Of a stretch of 64,000 nucleotides of DNA, positions 20,006 to 29,230 are shown piece by piece; the first letter of the stretch is position 1, and each line of letters starts with the position of its first letter. The position numbers and the translations under genes are program-made. The notes under the pieces are model-generated. The model was not told where the DNA came from. It was given only the letters and a program-made list of their open reading frames with translations, and made no database searches. Source of the stretch: Glycera tridactyla (taxonomy: Eukaryota); assembly GCA_965644265.1 (NCBI GenBank), contig OZ286463.1, positions 78,492,001-78,556,000 on the forward strand, in the 5' to 3' direction.

Positions 20006-20670
20006 CTTTTCACATTATTTTGAGGACCCTTGAGCAAAAGTCTCGCATGATCTTTTTCCTGAAGCCTGAAAAATTCATTCATACAATCCACAATCAGACT
20101 TGTGAGAAAGCTGACTATAGAAGCGAAGGAGTCATCCTGGTGGGTTTTCAGGATTTAAGATGAGTAATAGCCGCTGGGAAAGTTGACACCTGCTGGGGGC
20201 ACATCCACACACCGATATTAAATATCTCTCTCATTACTCTACCCATTGTTTCCACCTTCTTCCCTCGCCACTTGTCTGAATGAATCTGGGTCTAGTGTCT
20301 CTAATGAGGATATATTGGAAGCTTTTACTGCCGCCTTTTTGATGTTTGTGAGCCTGACAACGGGGGACCGTACCATTTATGATGTTGTTGTAATTTCTTT
20401 ATTTTGTTTCGTCAATCACCAATAATGTTATACAGTACAGTAAATACAGTAATACAGTAAGGTGTAACAGCATATACCCTCATTATTAAGGGTTTTCTCA
20501 GCCTGACGAAGTAACACATGTGATAACTTTCTATTGACTCACGTGATATGAAGATGAAATAATGGATATGATATATGATGAAATGATATGAGATGAGTTG
20601 GTATGACTGGGACATATTTCTTTAATCTATATTATGTTTCTATGTAACACTTTTCTTTCCATGAAATAAA

Positions 20671-20722
20671 TTTATTTTATTTTATTTTCAGGGAAGTTTC
20701 AAGAAAGAAAATCAACATTTTC
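20671..20722 (-). other. Probable LINE 3' terminus: GAAAAT-GTTG-ATTTTC hairpin, ACTTCCCTG, (AAAAT)3 tail
   Basis: Seen directly ~150-190 nt after the ORF2 stop. Hairpin plus short-repeat tail is the usual L2/CR1-group 3' end layout. Confidence 0.55.
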
Positions 20723-20863
20723 AAAATGAGATTGGAGCAGACACAAGACCAAGTCTAGAGTTATGTTGAAAACAAAATTTCCAATCTATCTTGGATTCAC
20801 ATTTGAGGAAGTTGCTGTTCCATTTTCTGAGAAAAAATTTTCTCTATATTTATAGAAATAAAT

Positions 20864-23782
20864 TTAGATCCAAATGAAATTCTTGAGTTTATTTTTAAAT
20901 TGGTCGTGCTCCATACTCTCATAATCAGGATATTTCCTTACACAGTCATTCCACAGCTTGCTTCCTCTGTATCTAAAATTTCCTTCAGATATTCTACTAG
21001 CTGGTTGTTTTTGTTCCAGGAAGGGTCTATTCAGAGATCTAGTATGATAATGGAAATCTCTAGTATCTGCCATATATTTACATAATGGTTCATACTGAAC
21101 ATGAACATCTCCAGTAAGGATCCGATTTACATGAATCAGGGTGTGATATTGTCTACGACCATCCAGGTATGGCATATCCAGTCTTTCATGTGTTAAAGAT
21201 GACCTTGTACGTGGTTCACATTTTAAAATAATTCTCAAGGCTTTATTTTGAACCCTTTGTAATTTTGTAGAATCTGCCACACCTAGACTGTCGTAGACAA
21301 TATCACAATAATCAAAAATTGGCAAGATAAGGGTCCTGTACAGCATCAGGGACATGTTTTTACTCACTATGCCCCTGAGTCTGCCCAGGACCCCCACCCT
21401 GCTCATAGTCCGATGTCTAATGTCCTCAGCATGTTGCTTGAAACTTAAATTTCTATCCAAAATGATGCCCAAGTATTTAAAACATTCAACTTGTTCAATT
21501 TTCACTCCTTTGAAGGTGATATCAATATTACATCTTTGGGTTTGTGTACGTGTTCCAAAGACCATTATTTTGGTTTTCGACAGATTCAAGCTCAACTTAT
21601 TTCTATCTAACCAAATGCTCACATCCTTTAGTGAGTTTTCTAATTTGCGTTGAACTTGCACCGGATTTCTGTCGGATACCAAAATAGCTGTGTCATCCGC
21701 ATAGAGATTCATACTGGGACCCCTCATATAATAGGGTATGTCATTCACATATATAGTAAATAATAGGGGTCCCAGTATGGATCCCTGTGGGACTCCACAG
21801 TTGATCTCATTTTCAGTTGAGGTAAACCCATTTGCACGTACAGAACATCTACGATTTTTCAAATAGCTCGAGAGCCAGCTATTGCTCTTTTCATCAACTC
21901 CATATTGGCACATTTTCCTCAGTAGGATATCATGGTCTACCGTGTCGAAAGCTTTCTTCAGGTCCAGGAAGAGCACTCCACTGGTACATCCCTTATCTAT
22001 ATTTAAGTACAATTTATCTAGAAATTCCAATAGACATGTTCCAGTGGAGCAGCCCCCCCTGAAACCCGATTGCTCTCGACACAGTAGTCCACTACTTTCA
22101 AAATACGTAGAAATCTGTTTATGCACAATCTTTTCTAAGACTTTGCTAATAGTCGACAATAAGCTTATAGGTCTATAATTAGACTCTAGAGTTCTATTTC
22201 CAGATTTGTATAGGGGTATTATTGTAGCAGTTTTCCATTGGTCAGGGAACACTCCACCATTTATACTCAAATTAAAAATATGACAGATCAGTGGTAATAG
22301 GACTATCATACATTCTTTAACTATTTTTGCTGGCATACCATCATCTCGACTTGATTTTGTAGTTGATAAACTGTTGATAATTTCTGAGATTTCTGCCATT
22401 GTGGTAGGTTTCAGACTGAAAGTATTTTCCAGATGAATCGGGAATATGTCTAAGGGATCAATTCCATCAGTTTGTATTTTCATGCTCAGATTTTTACCCA
22501 CGTTACTGAAGAAATTGTTTAATTTCGTTGATTTCGTTTCATTATCTGTCGCATTGTCAATTTTCAAAATATCCGTCCTGCCTTTATTTTTACCCCAAAA
22601 CATATTTATTGTTTCCCATAATTTCTTGCTATCATGTTGGTTATTCAAAAACATATTGTCAATATATTGACGTTGTAGCGTTCTTTTCAATTTCTTACAT
22701 TTTTTAACTAAATTATCTTTAATTTCTTTATTTTCACTATTGTTATTTTTCTTGAAAGTGGCACAAGCTTTTTGACGATCTTTAATCAAGTCGAGATATT
22801 CACTGGTAAGCCATTTTGGCCAATTATCAGTGACCCGATGTCTTTTCAATGGAATGTTCTTATCTAAAATTTCATTCATAGTTTGATGAAATAGTTCAGT
22901 AGACTTGTTTGTATCAATAGTGGAGTAGAACTCATCCCAATTTTGTTTCAGGATATCCATTTTTAATTTTTCAAAATCTACTTTAGCAAAGTCTTTGAAA
23001 TAAACAAAACTTGACTTTCTAGAGACGGGAATTTTTTTCCTTGCTACTAAGATTAAACTATGGTCCGAAAGACCCGTCTCTAGAACCCCATGTTGGTGGT
23101 ACATCTCAGGATTGTTTACAACAATATGGTCCAATAATGACTTGCTTGTAGAGGTTACCCTTGTATATGTATCAATTAATTGTGTAAGGTTATTCAAATT
23201 CAAAAAACTGTTATAAATGCTCCCTCTATCTTGGGATTTGAAATCTATGTTCATATCCCCTATCAAAACACAATCACACAACCTTTCTGATATCATGTCA
23301 ATATAATTAGCATCCAACCAGTCAATGAAAACACCTATGTTTCCATATGGAGGGCGGTATATACTACCTATAATAATCTTTCTGGTGTTTGGTAAGATCA
23401 AATCAATCCATAATGATTCCACATCCGTAGTACAAATGGCCATGTCTGGTATTACTTGCACTTGCCTATCATTTCGTACATAAATAAGTAATCCCCCTCC
23501 TGCTAGCCTCCGACTTCCTTCATTTCGATCTGATCTTATTATATAATAACCAGAGATTTCCAATTGAGAATCTTTGTGAGAATCATTTAAAAAGGTCTCT
23601 CCTATTACCATGATGTCAATTTTCGTTTCGAGTAGTAACAGTTCGATATCATCAACTTTATTTATGAGACTTCTCACATTGAGGTATGCAATCTTTATCC
23701 CTTTGATGGTATTTATTTCACTAGCAGTTTGCCATTGTAGAGTCTTGTTTCTATATTCACGAGCACCGTGTCGTTCAGTCAT
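20864..23782 (-). CDS. ORF2: apurinic-type endonuclease plus reverse transcriptase, 972 aa
   Basis: APE motifs YLNVRSL, IGETFL, GGGLLIYV, SIYRPP, IGDMNID, LLDHI, SDHSLI. RT motifs YRPISLL, QSGFR, FLDLKKAFDTVDH, GVPQGSILGPLLF, LYADD, KYLGI. C-terminal LPIFDYCD, LQRVQNKALR and KLWN are typical of L2/CR1-group ORF2. No RNase H or CCHC tail seen. Uninterrupted frame. Confidence 0.97.
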   Translation of the reverse strand: MTERHGAREYRNKTLQWQTASEINTIKGIKIAYLNVRSLINKVDDIELLLLETKIDIMVIGETFLNDSHKDSQLEISGYYIIRSDRNEGSRRLAGGGLLIYVRNDRQVQVIPDMAICTTDVESLWIDLILPNTRKIIIGSIYRPPYGNIGVFIDWLDANYIDMISERLCDCVLIGDMNIDFKSQDRGSIYNSFLNLNNLTQLIDTYTRVTSTSKSLLDHIVVNNPEMYHQHGVLETGLSDHSLILVARKKIPVSRKSSFVYFKDFAKVDFEKLKMDILKQNWDEFYSTIDTNKSTELFHQTMNEILDKNIPLKRHRVTDNWPKWLTSEYLDLIKDRQKACATFKKNNNSENKEIKDNLVKKCKKLKRTLQRQYIDNMFLNNQHDSKKLWETINMFWGKNKGRTDILKIDNATDNETKSTKLNNFFSNVGKNLSMKIQTDGIDPLDIFPIHLENTFSLKPTTMAEISEIINSLSTTKSSRDDGMPAKIVKECMIVLLPLICHIFNLSINGGVFPDQWKTATIIPLYKSGNRTLESNYRPISLLSTISKVLEKIVHKQISTYFESSGLLCREQSGFRGGCSTGTCLLEFLDKLYLNIDKGCTSGVLFLDLKKAFDTVDHDILLRKMCQYGVDEKSNSWLSSYLKNRRCSVRANGFTSTENEINCGVPQGSILGPLLFTIYVNDIPYYMRGPSMNLYADDTAILVSDRNPVQVQRKLENSLKDVSIWLDRNKLSLNLSKTKIMVFGTRTQTQRCNIDITFKGVKIEQVECFKYLGIILDRNLSFKQHAEDIRHRTMSRVGVLGRLRGIVSKNMSLMLYRTLILPIFDYCDIVYDSLGVADSTKLQRVQNKALRIILKCEPRTRSSLTHERLDMPYLDGRRQYHTLIHVNRILTGDVHVQYEPLCKYMADTRDFHYHTRSLNRPFLEQKQPASRISEGNFRYRGSKLWNDCVRKYPDYESMEHDQFKNKLKNFIWI

Positions 23783-24478
23783 TAATGAAGATGTGATGAG
23801 AATGAAAATGAAAGTGTGAGTTTCTTAAGATGCGCTAAGTAACTTAGCCTCAAAATTGAAACAAGATGTCAATTTTTACAAAAATAAGAGAGTACATTGA
23901 TCTCTCAAAAATGTTTGCTGTGTGCCCATCCGGGCAGTTACTACAGCTATTCCAATATGAAAAATAATACAGAAGTCGTAGCCTATCAATGAGATGCGAG
24001 CTGGAATAGGTGAGAAAAAATACATGTTATTCGATTTCAGGTGTATCAGTGGTGATATATCAATGATAATATTATCGTGTTTCACATTTCTTGATACATT
24101 GTGAAATATGGGGCAACAATTCGCAAGATCCCTGCCTATACATTTTAATTGGATGTTTAAAAATTTTCAACAAATCAAGAATACAAAATACGAATAAAAA
24201 TAGAATGCAAAAAACTCAAAAGGGACACTAGATATCACTTTATGGCCAAGTGAAATTGACTGGATAACTACTTCATTCAGATACTCTCTCTTGGAGTGAG
24301 GCTCTGACTGGAAATACCACTTCAGCCAGCATTTTAGCCTCTCATCTTATATTCCTGTTGTCTACTTACTTCAGGAGTGATCATAATAAATTAGCCATAA
24401 AAATAATAAGTTCACAATATTTTTCACATTCACAGTTTCCAAAAATAACATGATAATTCGGTTATACATGGTTTAACT

Positions 24479-25135
24479 TGAAACCTTGTATCAGCTTTCA
24501 GAGAGATATGTATCAAAATAATCTCGTTATGATAATTCTAGTTAAAATTCAGCAAGAAGAGTCATATTCCATTTCCCATCTCATTTAGCAAGTAGGGGGA
24601 CCATAGGATATCCAGGAAAGCTCCCTTTTGCATATAGGTTTGGGAAATGTTGGCTGACTTTTAAAATAGATTACTATTTCTAGAATGATGTTGCAAAAAC
24701 ATCTGATATTCTTCCAAAGGAAAGAAAAGACAAGAATTCGATTCCAGATTCTTCTCATAAAATAGCTGGTCACGTCTAAATCTCATCTACAATAATTCTA
24801 GATGGTACGCAGTTTCATCATTTAGAAAAAATATATGAAAAATAATAGCTGATCTCATTTATAACTCATCTACAATAGGTGGAAACTTGTAACAGCTTTC
24901 AAAGAAAAATATAGATAAAGATAATCACGTATGATAAAGCTAGGTAATTTCAGCAAAGAAGAGTCTGTCTCCATATTCCATCTCATACTGCAGGTAGGGG
25001 GACCATAGGATATACAGGAAAAACTCCCTGTTGCATTATGGTTTGGAGAATGTTCACAGACTTTTGAAGAAATGGTTATTTTCTGAAAAAGATTTTCTCA
25101 TTTTCTCATTCTACAAAATCATCTTATATTTCAAA
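24479..25135. repeat. Two diverged ~250 bp direct repeats (about 24479-24725 and 24882-25135) in the LINE spacer
   Basis: Aligned by eye. Shared core GTAGGGGGACCATAGGATA-[TC/TA]-CAGGAAA, plus GAAAC(C)TTGTA.CAGCTTTCA and CAGCAA(A)GAAGAGTC. Confidence 0.85.
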
Positions 25136-25665
25136 GGCAATAGATTCTTTTCAAAAAACAATCTCGTGGTGTACCATTTCTAACTTGAAAGTAATCACCG
25201 GTTTCCATATATCCATAATAAAGGAAATAAAAGTAACTAAAATAGTGGATGATGTTGAAAAGGGGTTGGCAACAATATTTCTCACCTTGAGGACAAGCCA
25301 TGTGCTCCATTTCAATCTGTTAATTTAAAGCTAGAGTATTCACTCTAGGTCCTGCCCCCATTCAATCTGGTGGACCACTGCATATGATAGGAGCATGTGA
25401 GTATGAGGACAGGAATTAGGATTCATGTATAGAACCCCTTAACCAAATTAGAATTTCTTCCAATGCTCATGGCCCTTGTTCTCAAGAAGATACTTTCATA
25501 CTGCTCATTGATGTCTTCCTACAACAATGCAAAAATTGCAATTATTACAATTATCAATAATTCAAAATGAAAATGAACATGAACATACATACAGTCATCT
25601 CAGTTATACTCAACTAGACAAGCCAAGATTCACGCCAGATGACATCCAAAAACTAGCCCACGATA

Positions 25666-26571
25666 TTAATTTCCATACCATAGGTCAAGAATTGGACCTA
25701 TGATTGATAGGGCTAAGCCCTTATTTCCAAGTTCATTGAAATGCACATGGTCATGTGTGAACATACCTGACATAATATCACCGTGTGGGCATGGTTTTTT
25801 TCCCTTGTTTCTTCTGCCTCCCAACCTTCTGCGTGTGTATTTGAAGGTATTTGTTGGACTGGGAGTCTTGAAAGACTTTACAAACATGTGGTGTGTATGT
25901 ATGAAGTGCATTGCGATGTCAATTCTTTTGAAATGATTTCTGACGAAATTGTCCACCCATAGTGCCAAGACTCTACTCTCTTCGTCCCATTTTGGTCTCC
26001 AAGTAATAGGAATGTGACAGAATTCTGTATGTGGAAAGTATTTGTTCAGGAAAAGTATAGCCAAATGTATACGCATGCTTAGTTGTGCAAACCATTCATG
26101 CCTTAAAGAGGTGATCCTCTTCCTCTGTATTCTGGGATCTCTAGACCATGTTTTGATGCCTTTGACTTTGGTGTTAAACTTGTCAATGTCATTTGAGCCC
26201 AGAATTATCAGGATGTAGTTTGCAGCTATTTGTTCATCAATAATTTTTTGCATGGTATTCCCATACCGCCTGAATTTTTTTGCACCCTCAGGAGTATCCG
26301 CAAATATACCCTGAATTTCGTCAACAAATGTCAGCCATTTACCACCACCTATACCTTTATAGGACCAGTTTCTCAAGATGGTCTTTTGGTGGTTGTCTTC
26401 TGGTAGATTCTTCACATATGTCTGGAGACGGGCAACATGACTGCTTCCAAGTACTAACACATCCGGGACTCCGTATGTATCAATTTGATGTCGCCTTCTA
26501 TATACTGGGTCCTTCTCATAGGTCCACGATACCCGCGCTTCTGCAGCGATTCTTGCTAGACCTGAATTTGC
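25666..26571 (-). CDS. SGNH/GDSL-family esterase frame, 301 codons, no own AUG; probably a spliced exon
   Basis: Block I VLGSSH, block II GIGGG, block III LGSND, block V DHVH. I translated 37 more open codons upstream of the tracked GTG (ANSGLARIAAEARVSWTYEKDPVYRRRHQIDTYGVPD) up to the TAG at 26574-26572, which is also the AG of a splice acceptor. Confidence 0.85.
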   Translation of the reverse strand, partial: ANSGLARIAAEARVSWTYEKDPVYRRRHQIDTYGVPDVLVLGSSHVARLQTYVKNLPEDNHQKTILRNWSYKGIGGGKWLTFVDEIQGIFADTPEGAKKFRRYGNTMQKIIDEQIAANYILIILGSNDIDKFNTKVKGIKTWSRDPRIQRKRITSLRHEWFAQLSMRIHLAILFLNKYFPHTEFCHIPITWRPKWDEESRVLALWVDNFVRNHFKRIDIAMHFIHTHHMFVKSFKTPSPTNTFKYTRRRLGGRRNKGKKPCPHGDIMSGMFTHDHVHFNELGNKGLALSIIGPILDLWYGN

Positions 26572-26612
26572 CTATGGAAAATAAAGAAAATTTTGCGATC
26601 ACATTTAGTCAA
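26572..26612 (-). promoter_or_regulatory. 3' splice site at the start of the esterase frame
   Basis: TTGACTAAATGTGATCGCAAAATTTTCTTTATTTTCCATAG|GCA: branch-point-like TTGAC/CTAAA, polypyrimidine tract and YAG. Confidence 0.7.
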
Positions 26613-26993
26613 TTTTATGGTATTTTATTTTATTTATGTGAATAATATCCAATTCATTATTTTTTATCTATATTTGTAGGCACTTTCCTGTTATTTATAC
26701 GTATAATATTTCCCTTACATTAATTTATGTTTGTAGACACTTTCCCGCCATAAGTATCAGATTCCATTTAAGGTATATTACTAGAGAGGGAGAGAGGGAG
26801 ATTATTTGAGAGGGGGGGTAGAGATTGCATATTGGGGTTTTGGAGAAATTTGAGATGTTAATTCTTCTTTCTGAGAGATTTCACCACGGCCGGTTACCAT
26901 TAATTATTCTACCAGTTACTATGATACCATTTGGTTTTTACTGTTTATATTGCCGTGTCATTCCGACTTGCGGATACTATTCCGGTCGTCCGG

Positions 26994-27359
26994 TCAAAAG
27001 GTTACGGCGCCCATGGCGTATCTGAACTGGTGTTTAAAGTCGATTTGCGCCTCGTCTAGCAATCTATCATTCACTACATACATTCCAATTACACCTACCT
27101 CATTGCAGTAGCCTAGTTTAATGTCTAGGTTTCTTCTATGACTTATGTTTATGGCGTGCAGCGACATTTTCGACTCAAAGTAAGCGGAGAATTGTTGCCA
27201 TGCTCTCCCGGTTTCGATATGTTGATCATGCGCACACGGCGTGACCTCATTTGACACGGCCTGTTCGATATGCCGGTGTTCTACCACGACGGTTGAACTG
27301 ATAGTTTTCGCCGCGACCTGCTCCTGGTCTTTTTCCTGGTGTAGGCAAAGGTGGGTATT
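26994..27359 (-). CDS. Possible small overlapping frame (~120 codons) at the ORF1 3' end, no recognised domain
   Basis: The tracked 97-aa ORF extends upstream to an in-frame TAG near 27360. First ATG is at 27167. Contains a phase-0 GAG|GTAGGT donor at 27099|27098. Confidence 0.3.
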   Translation of the reverse strand, partial: NTHLCLHQEKDQEQVAAKTISSTVVVEHRHIEQAVSNEVTPCAHDQHIETGRAWQQFSAYFESKMSLHAINISHRRNLDIKLGYCNEVGVIGMYVVNDRLLDEAQIDFKHQFRYAMGAVTF

Positions 27360-29004
27360 CTATATTATCTCTAGGGTTATTTTGTCCGAATTGAAGTTTT
27401 GACTGTACTAATAATTTGGTTTCCTGTTGTTTTCTTTCTATCTCTTTTTCAATTTGTTTTAGGGTTGGATCCAACTTTTGTTTTTGTTTTTGCTCCGGGT
27501 CTTTTTGTTTATTTTTTGATTTGGTTTTCCTTTTTGGTAGCTCAAAATCCTGAAATTCTGTGGGCATTCTTGTGACATCAGTTATAATTGTATCATCTTG
27601 ATTGGCTTGCACAACTTCTGCTTTCTCAAGGTCGGTGCTCCCATCTCCCTCATTACTTAGACCTACCTCTATATCTTTACATTGTTCAAGATTATGTCCT
27701 CCCTTCAATATTGCATTAACTAGGGAATTGTGGTCCTTTATCAGAATCCTGTCACCTTCCTTTCCATGGGACACATAGACCCTCCCATCTTGTGTCCATA
27801 CATTGACTAGGAGCCCATGTCTCTTTGCTTCTCTTGCTTGCCTGAAAAGATTCCCCTCCCAAGGTGTCAAATGCTCCCTAACAAAATAATTGCTCCCTCT
27901 AAGTTTCCCCTTTTGTTTCAATATGTTCCTTCGCATGCCTGGGTTGCATAGTCTTATTTTAACAGCTCTTGGTTTGTCAGGATAACTTGGGCCATATCTG
28001 AAGGCTATGCAGATGTCATCTGATGTCAATCGTAAGTTTGTCTTAGTATTGAAAAAATCCACCACTTGCTCATGCAGGGTCTTTTCCTTTGACAAAGGAA
28101 GGCCATCCAATATAATGACCCCTAGTCGTTCTATCTTTTGGAGAGTATCTACATCAAGCTCTGATTGTCCAATCCTATCCTCGTGGTCATTTACTATTAT
28201 GATAATGTTCTCTACTTTCTCTTTCAATTGATCAAATTCCTCCCTGGTTATTGCACTCACCATCCTTTTGTCTCCGCCTCTTTTCTTCAGGTCTTCTAAT
28301 TCTTTTGCAGTTTCCTCCGCAAATTTCGTTATTCTTCCTTGAAGATTGTTTATAGTTGAATGTTGGTCTTGAACGATGTCTACAAGTTTCTGATGTTCTG
28401 TTAGGAGGTCTTGTCTACATCTTTCGGTGCTGTCCTCTATTGTGGATTCGACATATCGTTCCATGTCTATTCTACTTGATTTGTGGTATTGAACTAGTTT
28501 TTCTTTAATTCGAGTGTCTACATAATGTTCCATATATTGTTTCCACCCACTCTGTGGTTCTGTTGATGAAATAGACTTTGCACTGCTGGGCATATTAACT
28601 GTTTGACTTGTATCACTTATTGTTCTCTCCGTCACGCCTGGTTTCTCAACCACGCCGTGTTCCGCTTCACTGGCCGTGTCGTCTGATTCCGACGAGTTTT
28701 CGTCTATCCCGTCACGCTCCACGCACACTGAATCGTCACCAAATACTACCTGGCTATCATGGCTGCTCGAAGGTACCATCTCGTTCTCGAAACTTTCAGT
28801 TCCCATTTTTTGCTGAGTGGAAGTAACGAATGGTTCGCAAGGGCCAAAAGGCTCCAAGTTTTCATCATTTTGATTGATTTCCATTTTTAAAGGCGTATCA
28901 AAACTTCCTTTGGGCCTTTTCACCGTTTTACTTGCAGCCTCTTGATCAGGAGTTAGTTGATGGTATTTACGGCCCTTCTGTACATTCACCGGTGTGGCAG
29001 CCAT
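27247..29004 (-). CDS. ORF1p, 585 aa: acidic disordered N-terminus, coiled coil, RRM, L1-ORF1p/FP-like C-terminal domain, basic tail
   Basis: Heptad-rich segment (~aa 190-295). RRM-like GVIILDGLP ... AFRYG..KPRAVKIRL. CTD-like YFVREHLTP..LFRQAREAK..VWTQDGRVYV. These patterns are typical of LINE ORF1 proteins, and the frame lies upstream of ORF2 on the same strand. Confidence 0.9.
   Translation of the reverse strand: MAATPVNVQKGRKYHQLTPDQEAASKTVKRPKGSFDTPLKMEINQNDENLEPFGPCEPFVTSTQQKMGTESFENEMVPSSSHDSQVVFGDDSVCVERDGIDENSSESDDTASEAEHGVVEKPGVTERTISDTSQTVNMPSSAKSISSTEPQSGWKQYMEHYVDTRIKEKLVQYHKSSRIDMERYVESTIEDSTERCRQDLLTEHQKLVDIVQDQHSTINNLQGRITKFAEETAKELEDLKKRGGDKRMVSAITREEFDQLKEKVENIIIIVNDHEDRIGQSELDVDTLQKIERLGVIILDGLPLSKEKTLHEQVVDFFNTKTNLRLTSDDICIAFRYGPSYPDKPRAVKIRLCNPGMRRNILKQKGKLRGSNYFVREHLTPWEGNLFRQAREAKRHGLLVNVWTQDGRVYVSHGKEGDRILIKDHNSLVNAILKGGHNLEQCKDIEVGLSNEGDGSTDLEKAEVVQANQDDTIITDVTRMPTEFQDFELPKRKTKSKNKQKDPEQKQKQKLDPTLKQIEKEIERKQQETKLLVQSKLQFGQNNPRDNIEYPPLPTPGKRPGAGRGENYQFNRRGRTPAYRTGRVK
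27661..27669 (-). promoter_or_regulatory. Phase-0 5' splice site inside ORF1 after codon 446
   Basis: ATA GAG|GTAGGT (KDIE|VG); frame checked against the ORF1 start at 29004. Confidence 0.5.
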
Positions 29005-29218
29005 GTGCGATTTGGTCGTAATCCTATCAATGCCGTGTGGATTCGATAATAATGTCCAACACTCGCCTTTTAACTAGCGGCTCGTTATCCCATTCAATGT
29101 CTGCGTATTCTATATACACTCCTACGTTGTTTGCAAATCCATTTATCGCCGTATCATTGTCCAGGACGGGCACACGCTTCTACATCGTCGAGAGAAATTA
29201 GATCGGCGTTCGTCTCAC

Positions 29219-29230
29219 GTCGCCATCTTG
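29219..29230 (-). promoter_or_regulatory. YY1-like site at the presumed 5' end of the LINE (internal promoter)
   Basis: Minus strand reads CATTT-CAAGATGGCGAC, matching the YY1 core AAGATGGC found near the 5' end of L1 elements. About 220 nt upstream of the ORF1 ATG, in CpG-rich sequence. Confidence 0.55.

Follow-up and report, generated by a model that had tools for sequence, protein, structure and literature searches.

LINEs are copied through RNA, and introns in their sense strand are therefore expected to be lost. Among the described elements closest to the locus reported here are the type IV LINEs with an esterase ORF1, represented by ZfL2-1, vertebrate CR1 and L2, and RTEX (PMC3905857, PMC4120745). 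According to the part of Schneider 2013 (PMC3905857) drawn on here, none of the esterase ORF1ps in Repbase has an RRM and the esterase ORF1ps follow coiled coils. In the corresponding part of Metcalfe and Casane 2014 (PMC4120745), the subgroups with a type II ORF1 are distinct from those with a type IV ORF1, and introns or splicing are not mentioned. Type II (transposase-22) ORF1s are recorded, in the sections used, for Daphne and for several L2 and CR1 subgroups (PMC4120745, PMC13343379), and CR1-group LINEs are described with one or two ORFs, the Daphne ORF1 resembling transposase-22 (PMC13343379). For LTR elements, the section of PMC5408684 consulted states that the expression of ORF3s typically proceeds through spliced messages.

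The window, i.e. the whole analysed stretch of 64,000 nucleotides from Glycera tridactyla (contig OZ286463.1), contains a LINE on its minus strand, the features of which are collected in Table 1. The genes are arranged in the order L1-like ORF1, SGNH esterase and APE-RT ORF2 (29230-20383, minus strand). The 5' end is (C)AAGATGGCG at 29230, and the 3' end is composed of AATAAA and an (AAC/TAC)n tail near 20383. The same ends within unrelated flanks were found in the relatives, and the dispersed copies have variable 5' truncation, a common 3' tail and no LTRs, as is characteristic of LINEs. Target-site duplications were searched for by eye at the copy ends inspected and none was evident; several copies (L027, L033, L034, L133, L143 and L196) end in or adjoin microsatellites. 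The 5' UTR is likely the main internal promoter of the LINE, and the motif at its start is one that we take to be YY1-like. A donor-like AAG/GCGAGT (the slash marks the exon boundary here and below) lies in the 5' UTR at about 29069-29061 (minus strand) and is conserved in 8 of the 13 copies aligned, with GTGAGT in L030.

Table 1. Coordinates of the features of the LINE in the window (predicted features included).
Feature	Coordinates	Strand	Basis
Full-length three-frame LINE copy, ~8.85 kb	20383..29230	-	copies compared
5' UTR, CpG-rich, CpG o/e 1.75 in first 200 nt, presumed YY1-like motif at start	29005..29230	-	
ORF1, 585 aa from first ATG: long helix, second helix, RRM, CTD	27247..29004	-	fold model
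Clade-specific donor-like G/GTGAGT in ORF1, after codon 248, phase 0	28255..28261	-	alignment
Likely internal promoter region, ORF1 end + 79-nt spacer, CpG peak	27168..27270	-	
Coding exon 1 of the esterase, 23 codons including the ATG (MSLHAINISHRRNLDIKLGYCNE), with A at -3 and GAG at the end	27099..27167	-	
Predicted phase-0 GT-AG intron, 527 nt	26572..27098	-	GTAGGT donor, TTGAC, pyrimidine tract, TAG acceptor
Esterase coding exon 2, 301 codons + stop	25666..26571	-	frame, stop to stop
Non-coding exon-like block behind esterase stop	25286..25518	-	conserved motif CATGCTCCTATCAYATGCWGTGGTCC
Non-coding gap before ORF2, 1.9 kb (1.1-2.9 kb in relatives)	23783..25665	-	short conserved motifs, inverted repeats
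ORF2, 972 aa from ATG: APE endonuclease + reverse transcriptase	20864..23782	-	Pfam

The predicted model of ORF1 (pLDDT 68) matched human LINE-1 ORF1p (2ykq, E 3.5e-6), to which all 10 fold matches with E <= 0.001 belong, and on this model a coiled coil, a single RRM and a CTD are recognized, as in type II (L1-like) ORF1s; no useful match was obtained with the ORF1 sequence in Pfam and PDB. For ORF2, an endonuclease (PF03372, E 4e-12) and a reverse transcriptase (PF00078, E 1.9e-38) were matched in Pfam, as expected for an APE-type LINE, with LINE-1 ORF2p as the best solved relative; the best database matches of ORF2 are 28-35% identical and mostly unnamed. The 16 other ORFs of the window gave no Pfam match above the cut-off.

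For comparison, 39 near and 40 distant copies were used, the latter picked by hand from 150 scored of the 2992 first-look esterase candidates found genome-wide (G000); the copies are mutually related, so that the counts below overstate independence. All three frames are present in most of the near and distant copies. Open frames of 291-304 aa occur in many of the esterase families with identity near 50%, which suggests many recently active lineages.

The middle frame encodes a predicted SGNH esterase. Exon 2 contains the SGNH blocks G42-S43-S44, G73-G77, G125-S-N127-D and D274-x-x-H277, and blocks I (Ser), II (Gly), III (Asn) and V (DxxH) are kept in 47, 47, 46 and 46 of 47 full frames, respectively. 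The top Foldseek matches are SGNH enzymes with a probability of 1.0, but with a best E value of 1.5e-3 on a model with a mean pLDDT of 60; all 23 listed matches in the top 24 ranks are, by title and by the family membership that we take them to have, SGNH-type hydrolases. In the Atlas neighbours, Lipase_GDSL families are carried by 15-30% of the members, and the Pfam GDSL match to the esterase itself fell below the cut-off (E 0.043). When trees were compared for the 49 copies with an intact esterase and RT stretch, in which identity to the window copy goes down to 43% for the esterase and 64% for the RT, 27 of the 29 supported esterase splits were also present in the RT tree and no conflicts occurred; this agreement indicates that the esterase has been passed on as a component of the LINE.

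In the initial annotation, the esterase frame was described as lacking a usable AUG and as beginning exactly at a splice acceptor, and both points were borne out. The frame (minus strand, 26571..25666) opens right after ...TTTTCTTTATTTTCCATAG, with the AG at 26573-26572 inside an in-frame TAG, and its first in-frame Met is residue 107, past the GSS of block I (42-44) and the Gly of block II (73-77). The branch-like motifs reported upstream are present as TTGAC with the branch A at -38 (26609) and CTAAA from -37. When the boundary was compared among homologues, an in-frame YAG (TAG or CAG) was found at one fixed codon in 75 of the 78 genomic copies in which the 5' region of the esterase could be located, including copies with as little as 43% protein identity. 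Among near copies it is kept in 36 of 38 (28 TAG, 8 CAG), the misses being L037 (TTG, a frameshifted copy) and L058 (rearranged), with L057 and L059 without the region; among distant copies it is kept in 39 of 40, mostly as CAG, the only miss (L196) having a microsatellite at that place, and the other in-frame offsets from -8 to +8 scored 0-5. Since TAG and CAG interchange, it is the AG that is kept rather than a stop. The pyrimidine share at -17 to -4 is 0.74 on average, versus about 0.5 in the intron interior. YTRAY occurs at -45 to -15 in 12 of 16 representatives against a background of 0-0.55 per 30 nt, and because of these background rates the branch-point signal alone is only modest evidence.

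On the upstream side, the likely esterase start is the ATG at 27167, and the donor GAG/GTAGGT at 27099/27098 is in phase 0 with the esterase. In an alignment of 13 copies, GAG/GT at 27098 is invariant and the ATG at 27167 is in phase with the esterase. By peptide similarity alone, exon 1 was located in 70 of 78 copies and was directly followed by GT in 68 of these 70: it was found in 33 of 38 near copies (ATG in 31, GT in 31) and in 37 of 40 distant copies (GT in 37/37), with the Met of the distant copies 23 codons upstream in 35 and 24 codons upstream in 2. The pN/pS of exon 1 is 0.23 (13 representatives), versus 0.71 and 1.39 in the shifted frames, and that of the exon 2 start is 0.25; judged by these ratios, exon 1 is under purifying selection as protein. 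In the same number of representatives (13), identity is 0.70 before and 0.39 after the donor, and 0.36 before and 0.62 after the acceptor. The intron measures 347-540 nt in near copies (11, 10 and 12 copies by length modulo 3, with in-frame stops in 33/33) and 317-672 nt in distant copies (11, 9 and 17). By this comparison, the intron sequence drifts freely while the ATG, the donor, the acceptor, the exon length and the phase stay conserved.

The features of a U2-type intron were thus found together, i.e. a GT donor, a branch site, a pyrimidine tract and YAG, with the frame restored upon removal, and the predicted esterase with exon 1 joined comprises 324 aa. A two-exon esterase gene located between ORF1 and ORF2 is accordingly considered very probable from the alignments, and splicing of the intron 27098-26572 is likely, as deduced from sequence comparison. 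The suggestion in the initial annotation that the esterase is an exon spliced to an upstream frame is hence upheld and made specific: the upstream frame is a 23-codon exon with its own ATG, which in the window copy starts 79 nt past the ORF1 stop and belongs neither to ORF1 nor to a host gene.

The X1 run, the RNA status of which is a guess (word share 0.05), gave no coverage over 25152-26933, and joints were seen only inside ORF2; the esterase is uncovered by X1, and none of its RNA reads or contigs crosses the junction of exon 1 and exon 2. One X1 contig, 86% alike, includes the first 15 nt of the intron past the donor, which is expected of unspliced RNA or of DNA.

Homologues outside the genome were also used for the boundary. 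A word-indexed protein search with the esterase gave no match, and a profile search gave 82 homologues from other assemblies, 55 of which were placed by the block I anchor and 28 of which reach upstream of residue 1. Gln stands exactly at -1 in 11 of these 28, with 0-3 at other offsets and a Gln frequency of 3%, and it usually follows Phe or Leu (FQ/, LQ/), as expected if a pyrimidine tract and CAG had been translated. At the protein level, this is a strong hint at the same acceptor. Nine outside homologues (P0011, P0017, P0032, P0038, P0039, P0044, P0046, P0053 and P0077) have a contiguous Met-initiated N-terminus of 19-27 aa, which is close to exon 1 in length, and a PIYRR-like motif is present in several of them; similarity of the outside N-termini to exon 1 at the expected offset was not significant, and the nine may be intronless lineages or spliced cDNAs.

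Explanations other than the two-exon gene were weighed against the same alignments. If splicing were absent, the esterase would have to be started at a non-AUG codon, such as the GTG at 26460 that had been named in the initial annotation and that stands six codons before the catalytic Ser in the window copy, or be entered from upstream through read-through or frameshifting. This GTG encodes Val at codon 38, which is GTG in only 12 of 37 copies (GTA in 18, GTT in 4, GTC in 2), for which reason a non-AUG start was dropped as the mechanism of the family. Residues 1-37 of exon 2, which lie before that codon, are conserved in the alignment, the intervening 317-672 nt contain stops and take all three phases in length, and exon 1 is selected as protein. 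An in-frame Met before the catalytic Ser is only sporadic (4/37 within exon 2 and 5/37 in the short open stretch before CAG), and a contiguous ORF1-esterase frame, the other arrangement considered at the outset, was found in none of 80 loci. Expression without splicing is therefore held to be extremely improbable. No more credible is the view that the esterase is a captured exon used by genes of the host where the element has inserted, or a passenger nested in the LINE but unrelated to it: a bare acceptor-led frame does look like an exon trap, but the same layout recurs at dozens of unrelated places together with the LINE ends, the esterase and RT trees agree, and the element brings its own first exon.

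A further question is how exon 1 of the two-exon gene is reached, for which an internal promoter at the end of ORF1, 5' of exon 1, is the probable answer. The spacer between the ORF1 stop and the exon-1 ATG is 77-81 nt in near copies, in all three phases, and 40-84 nt in 23 distant copies. CpG o/e before the ATG is 1.1-1.3, versus 0.3-0.7 in mid-ORF1 (11 near copies), and 1.0-1.6 in the 23 distant copies, a peak resembling that at the 5' UTR. In the window copy, TGCGCATG, a motif presumably NRF1-like, lies at 27234-27227, and TCGAA[AC] lies at 27268 and 27217 (minus strand). Before exon 1, the NRF1-like motif was found in 32 of 48 copies (1% in other windows, 3.5% in shuffles) and TCGAA[AC] in 44 of 48 (versus 8%), figures to be read with the motifs having been chosen after the alignments were viewed and with the copies being related. 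The YY1-like motif is rare there (4/48), and an acceptor-like site lies ahead of exon 1 in only 6 of 48. A subgenomic RNA would thus start from the CpG-rich internal promoter, with exon 1 as its short cap-proximal first exon. Alternatively, the same exons and intron could be used without a second promoter, by re-initiation after the ORF1 stop on a spliced full-length RNA; the ATG lies only 40-84 nt past that stop. This is considered unlikely, since the CpG peak and the NRF1-like motif sit at this very place, an out-of-frame ATG within the motif intervenes between the ORF1 stop and the exon-1 ATG in 12 of 12, and a spliced full-length RNA should yield intronless copies, of which none was seen. 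A +1 frameshift from ORF1 into a 121-aa frame (27359-26994) was rejected, because the spacer length takes all three phases and no reading frame is conserved ahead of the ATG. Taken as a whole, the exon, the intron and the internal promoter as given here form a highly probable arrangement.

The intron was kept in every copy examined. Among 120 distinct places matched by exon 1 in peptide searches (39, 80 and 17 matches), no spliced retrocopy was found and no exon-1 match stood in an open frame over 213 aa, a test which decayed spliced copies with stops could escape and which stands beside the scoring of 150 of the 2992 esterase candidates. The 213-aa frame, at C11:59195529, was rejected as a spliced copy: it lies in L052 (G000:C11:59188283-59198282), in which the end of ORF1, exon 1, the intron and the first half of exon 2 are tandemly duplicated and each of the two units retains its intron. 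In DNA searches with the exon 2 start (17 matches), the downstream block (18), the 5' UTR (14), the exon 1 region (21) and the ORF2 start (41), none of the matches was spliced; they were known full-length places or plain 5'-truncated copies, the junction being inspected at 15 loci drawn from 30 (ORF2-start) and 21 (exon-1-region) loci.

A possible reason for this retention, to which somewhat less than an even chance is given, is that only unspliced full-length RNA would serve as the template for copying. A stop codon more than 50-55 nt upstream of an exon junction is subject to nonsense-mediated decay. Where ORF1 is intact, its stop lies 109-153 nt upstream of the exon junction, so that a spliced full-length RNA would be a target of this decay and be removed. 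A conserved polyA signal after the esterase was not found, the window copy being without one within 1300 nt, and the subgenomic RNA may consequently continue through ORF2 to the 3' end of the element; its not being copied then needs an argument in cis. L1-like elements need ORF1 in cis, and the subgenomic RNA, being without ORF1 in cis, would not be copied. If ZfL2-1 is taken as a guide, lipids or membranes would be the target of the esterase in RNP assembly or transport.

Another donor-like site was found within ORF1. G/GTRAGT is present, in phase 0, in 28 of 31 copies; at 28260 it is in frame with the esterase acceptor and, on the fold model, falls in the linker behind the long helix (helix 20-84). 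The codon before this donor is the sole one of 17 columns with at least 4 amino acids that has an invariant third base (10 representatives), and, of the 7 Ser columns, only that of the donor has an invariant codon, with 0 of 30 other fourfold columns invariant; by codon comparison, the site is constrained beyond the protein. In this clade, the ORF1 donor might additionally be joined to the esterase acceptor. The second ORF1 isoform so produced would comprise 549 aa, with the ORF1 N-terminus and long helix followed by the esterase instead of the RRM-CTD, in a coiled-coil-esterase layout like that of ZfL2-1. Retrotransposon esterases are generally placed behind coiled coils in the part of Schneider 2013 (PMC3905857) considered, which fits such an isoform, but 24 more distant ORF1s are without the donor even though exon 1 and the acceptor are retained there, and the donor could instead be paired with the acceptor at 25520 or be a U1-binding site without a role in splicing. 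The fused isoform is thus possible but doubtful, and it supplements the two-exon explanation and does not replace it.

Behind the esterase stop, the exon-like block is preceded by an acceptor AG at 25520-25519 in 16 of 16 and followed by a donor-like AAG/GTGAG at 25285 in 12 of 16. In the gap, two related conserved motifs ending in TGGTCC were observed at 25395-25370, 25020-24998 and 24620-24598 (minus strand); the second is duplicated in the subfamily of the window, and TGGTCC is also present in the gap in the majority of the distant copies. Inverted repeats lie 5' of ORF2 at 23848-23834 and about 24328-24255 (minus strand), with GCTAAG-TTA-CTTAGC, and GACTG...CAGTC twice in relatives. They are conserved in near families and may aid translation of ORF2 across the long gap.

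A coding intron held at one codon, across families with RT proteins of only about 64% identity, implies a sorting of spliced message from unspliced template by the element. With the RNA-packaging and the lipid-related functions split into two genes, the role of the esterase would be testable by single-gene knockout. The element also unites two classes of ORF1 that, according to reports, are never found in combination. ORF-based annotation would miss such genes or call them out of intron sequence, as the FQ/ and LQ/ starts of homologues suggest. All parts may be joined in a speculative reading, for which the chance is put well below even: an old, large LINE lineage would resemble a complex retrovirus in miniature, with an independently promoted, intron-containing esterase, an intron kept since only unspliced RNA is copied, a second donor in one clade by which ORF1 is switched between an RNA-binding form (CC-RRM-CTD) and coiled-coil-esterase, and an intron position persisting in the distant homologues of other organisms. 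If true, this would bring together ORF1 classes that have been regarded as excluding one another.

In the literature searched, PMC11203168 and PMC2911113 included, no LINE with such a layout was found, and such elements may be present in Repbase reports or in the supplementary material of PMC3905857 and PMC4120745. The comparisons below refer to the parts of the cited papers used here. With type IV LINEs, the element shares an SGNH hydrolase with intact blocks upstream of ORF2 in an APE-RT non-LTR element; in those, however, the esterase is ORF1 itself, coiled-coil-fused and without an RRM protein, whereas here it is a separate middle gene, interrupted by a predicted intron, beside a CC-RRM-CTD ORF1, and a sequence match to the ZfL2-1 esterase was not obtained. 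The CR1-group elements with a type II ORF1 are similar in the L1 ORF1p-like fold, the APE-RT ORF2 of about 970 aa and the microsatellite 3' tail, a likeness of layout and general features, but at most two ORFs are described for them, while a third gene and a gap of 1.1-2.9 kb stand between the two here. In Penelope-like elements (PMC2377424), an intron is likewise kept through transposition with conserved splice sites; that intron is 75 nt long and lies in the promoter/5' region of another class of element, whereas the present one interrupts coding sequence in a LINE. Splice sites are also known in L1, where splicing (SpIREs, PMC5860796) inhibits retrotransposition and yields dead-end spliced copies, and in TART (PMC1636488), where introns occur in a non-coding antisense RNA; the intron described here, by contrast, appears necessary for a conserved protein. 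An accessory SGNH/GDSL third ORF, as found here, is present among LTR ORF3s, including the GDSL esterase of bdelloid Vesta/Athena (PMC5408684). Those are LTR or Penelope-like elements, and env-type splicing joins a 5' leader to ORF3, whereas the present gene, in a LINE, brings a coding first exon and probably a promoter of its own. The gene would work like the accessory spliced ORF3 of an LTR element, yet within a LINE, and the element is not a type IV ORF1 element.
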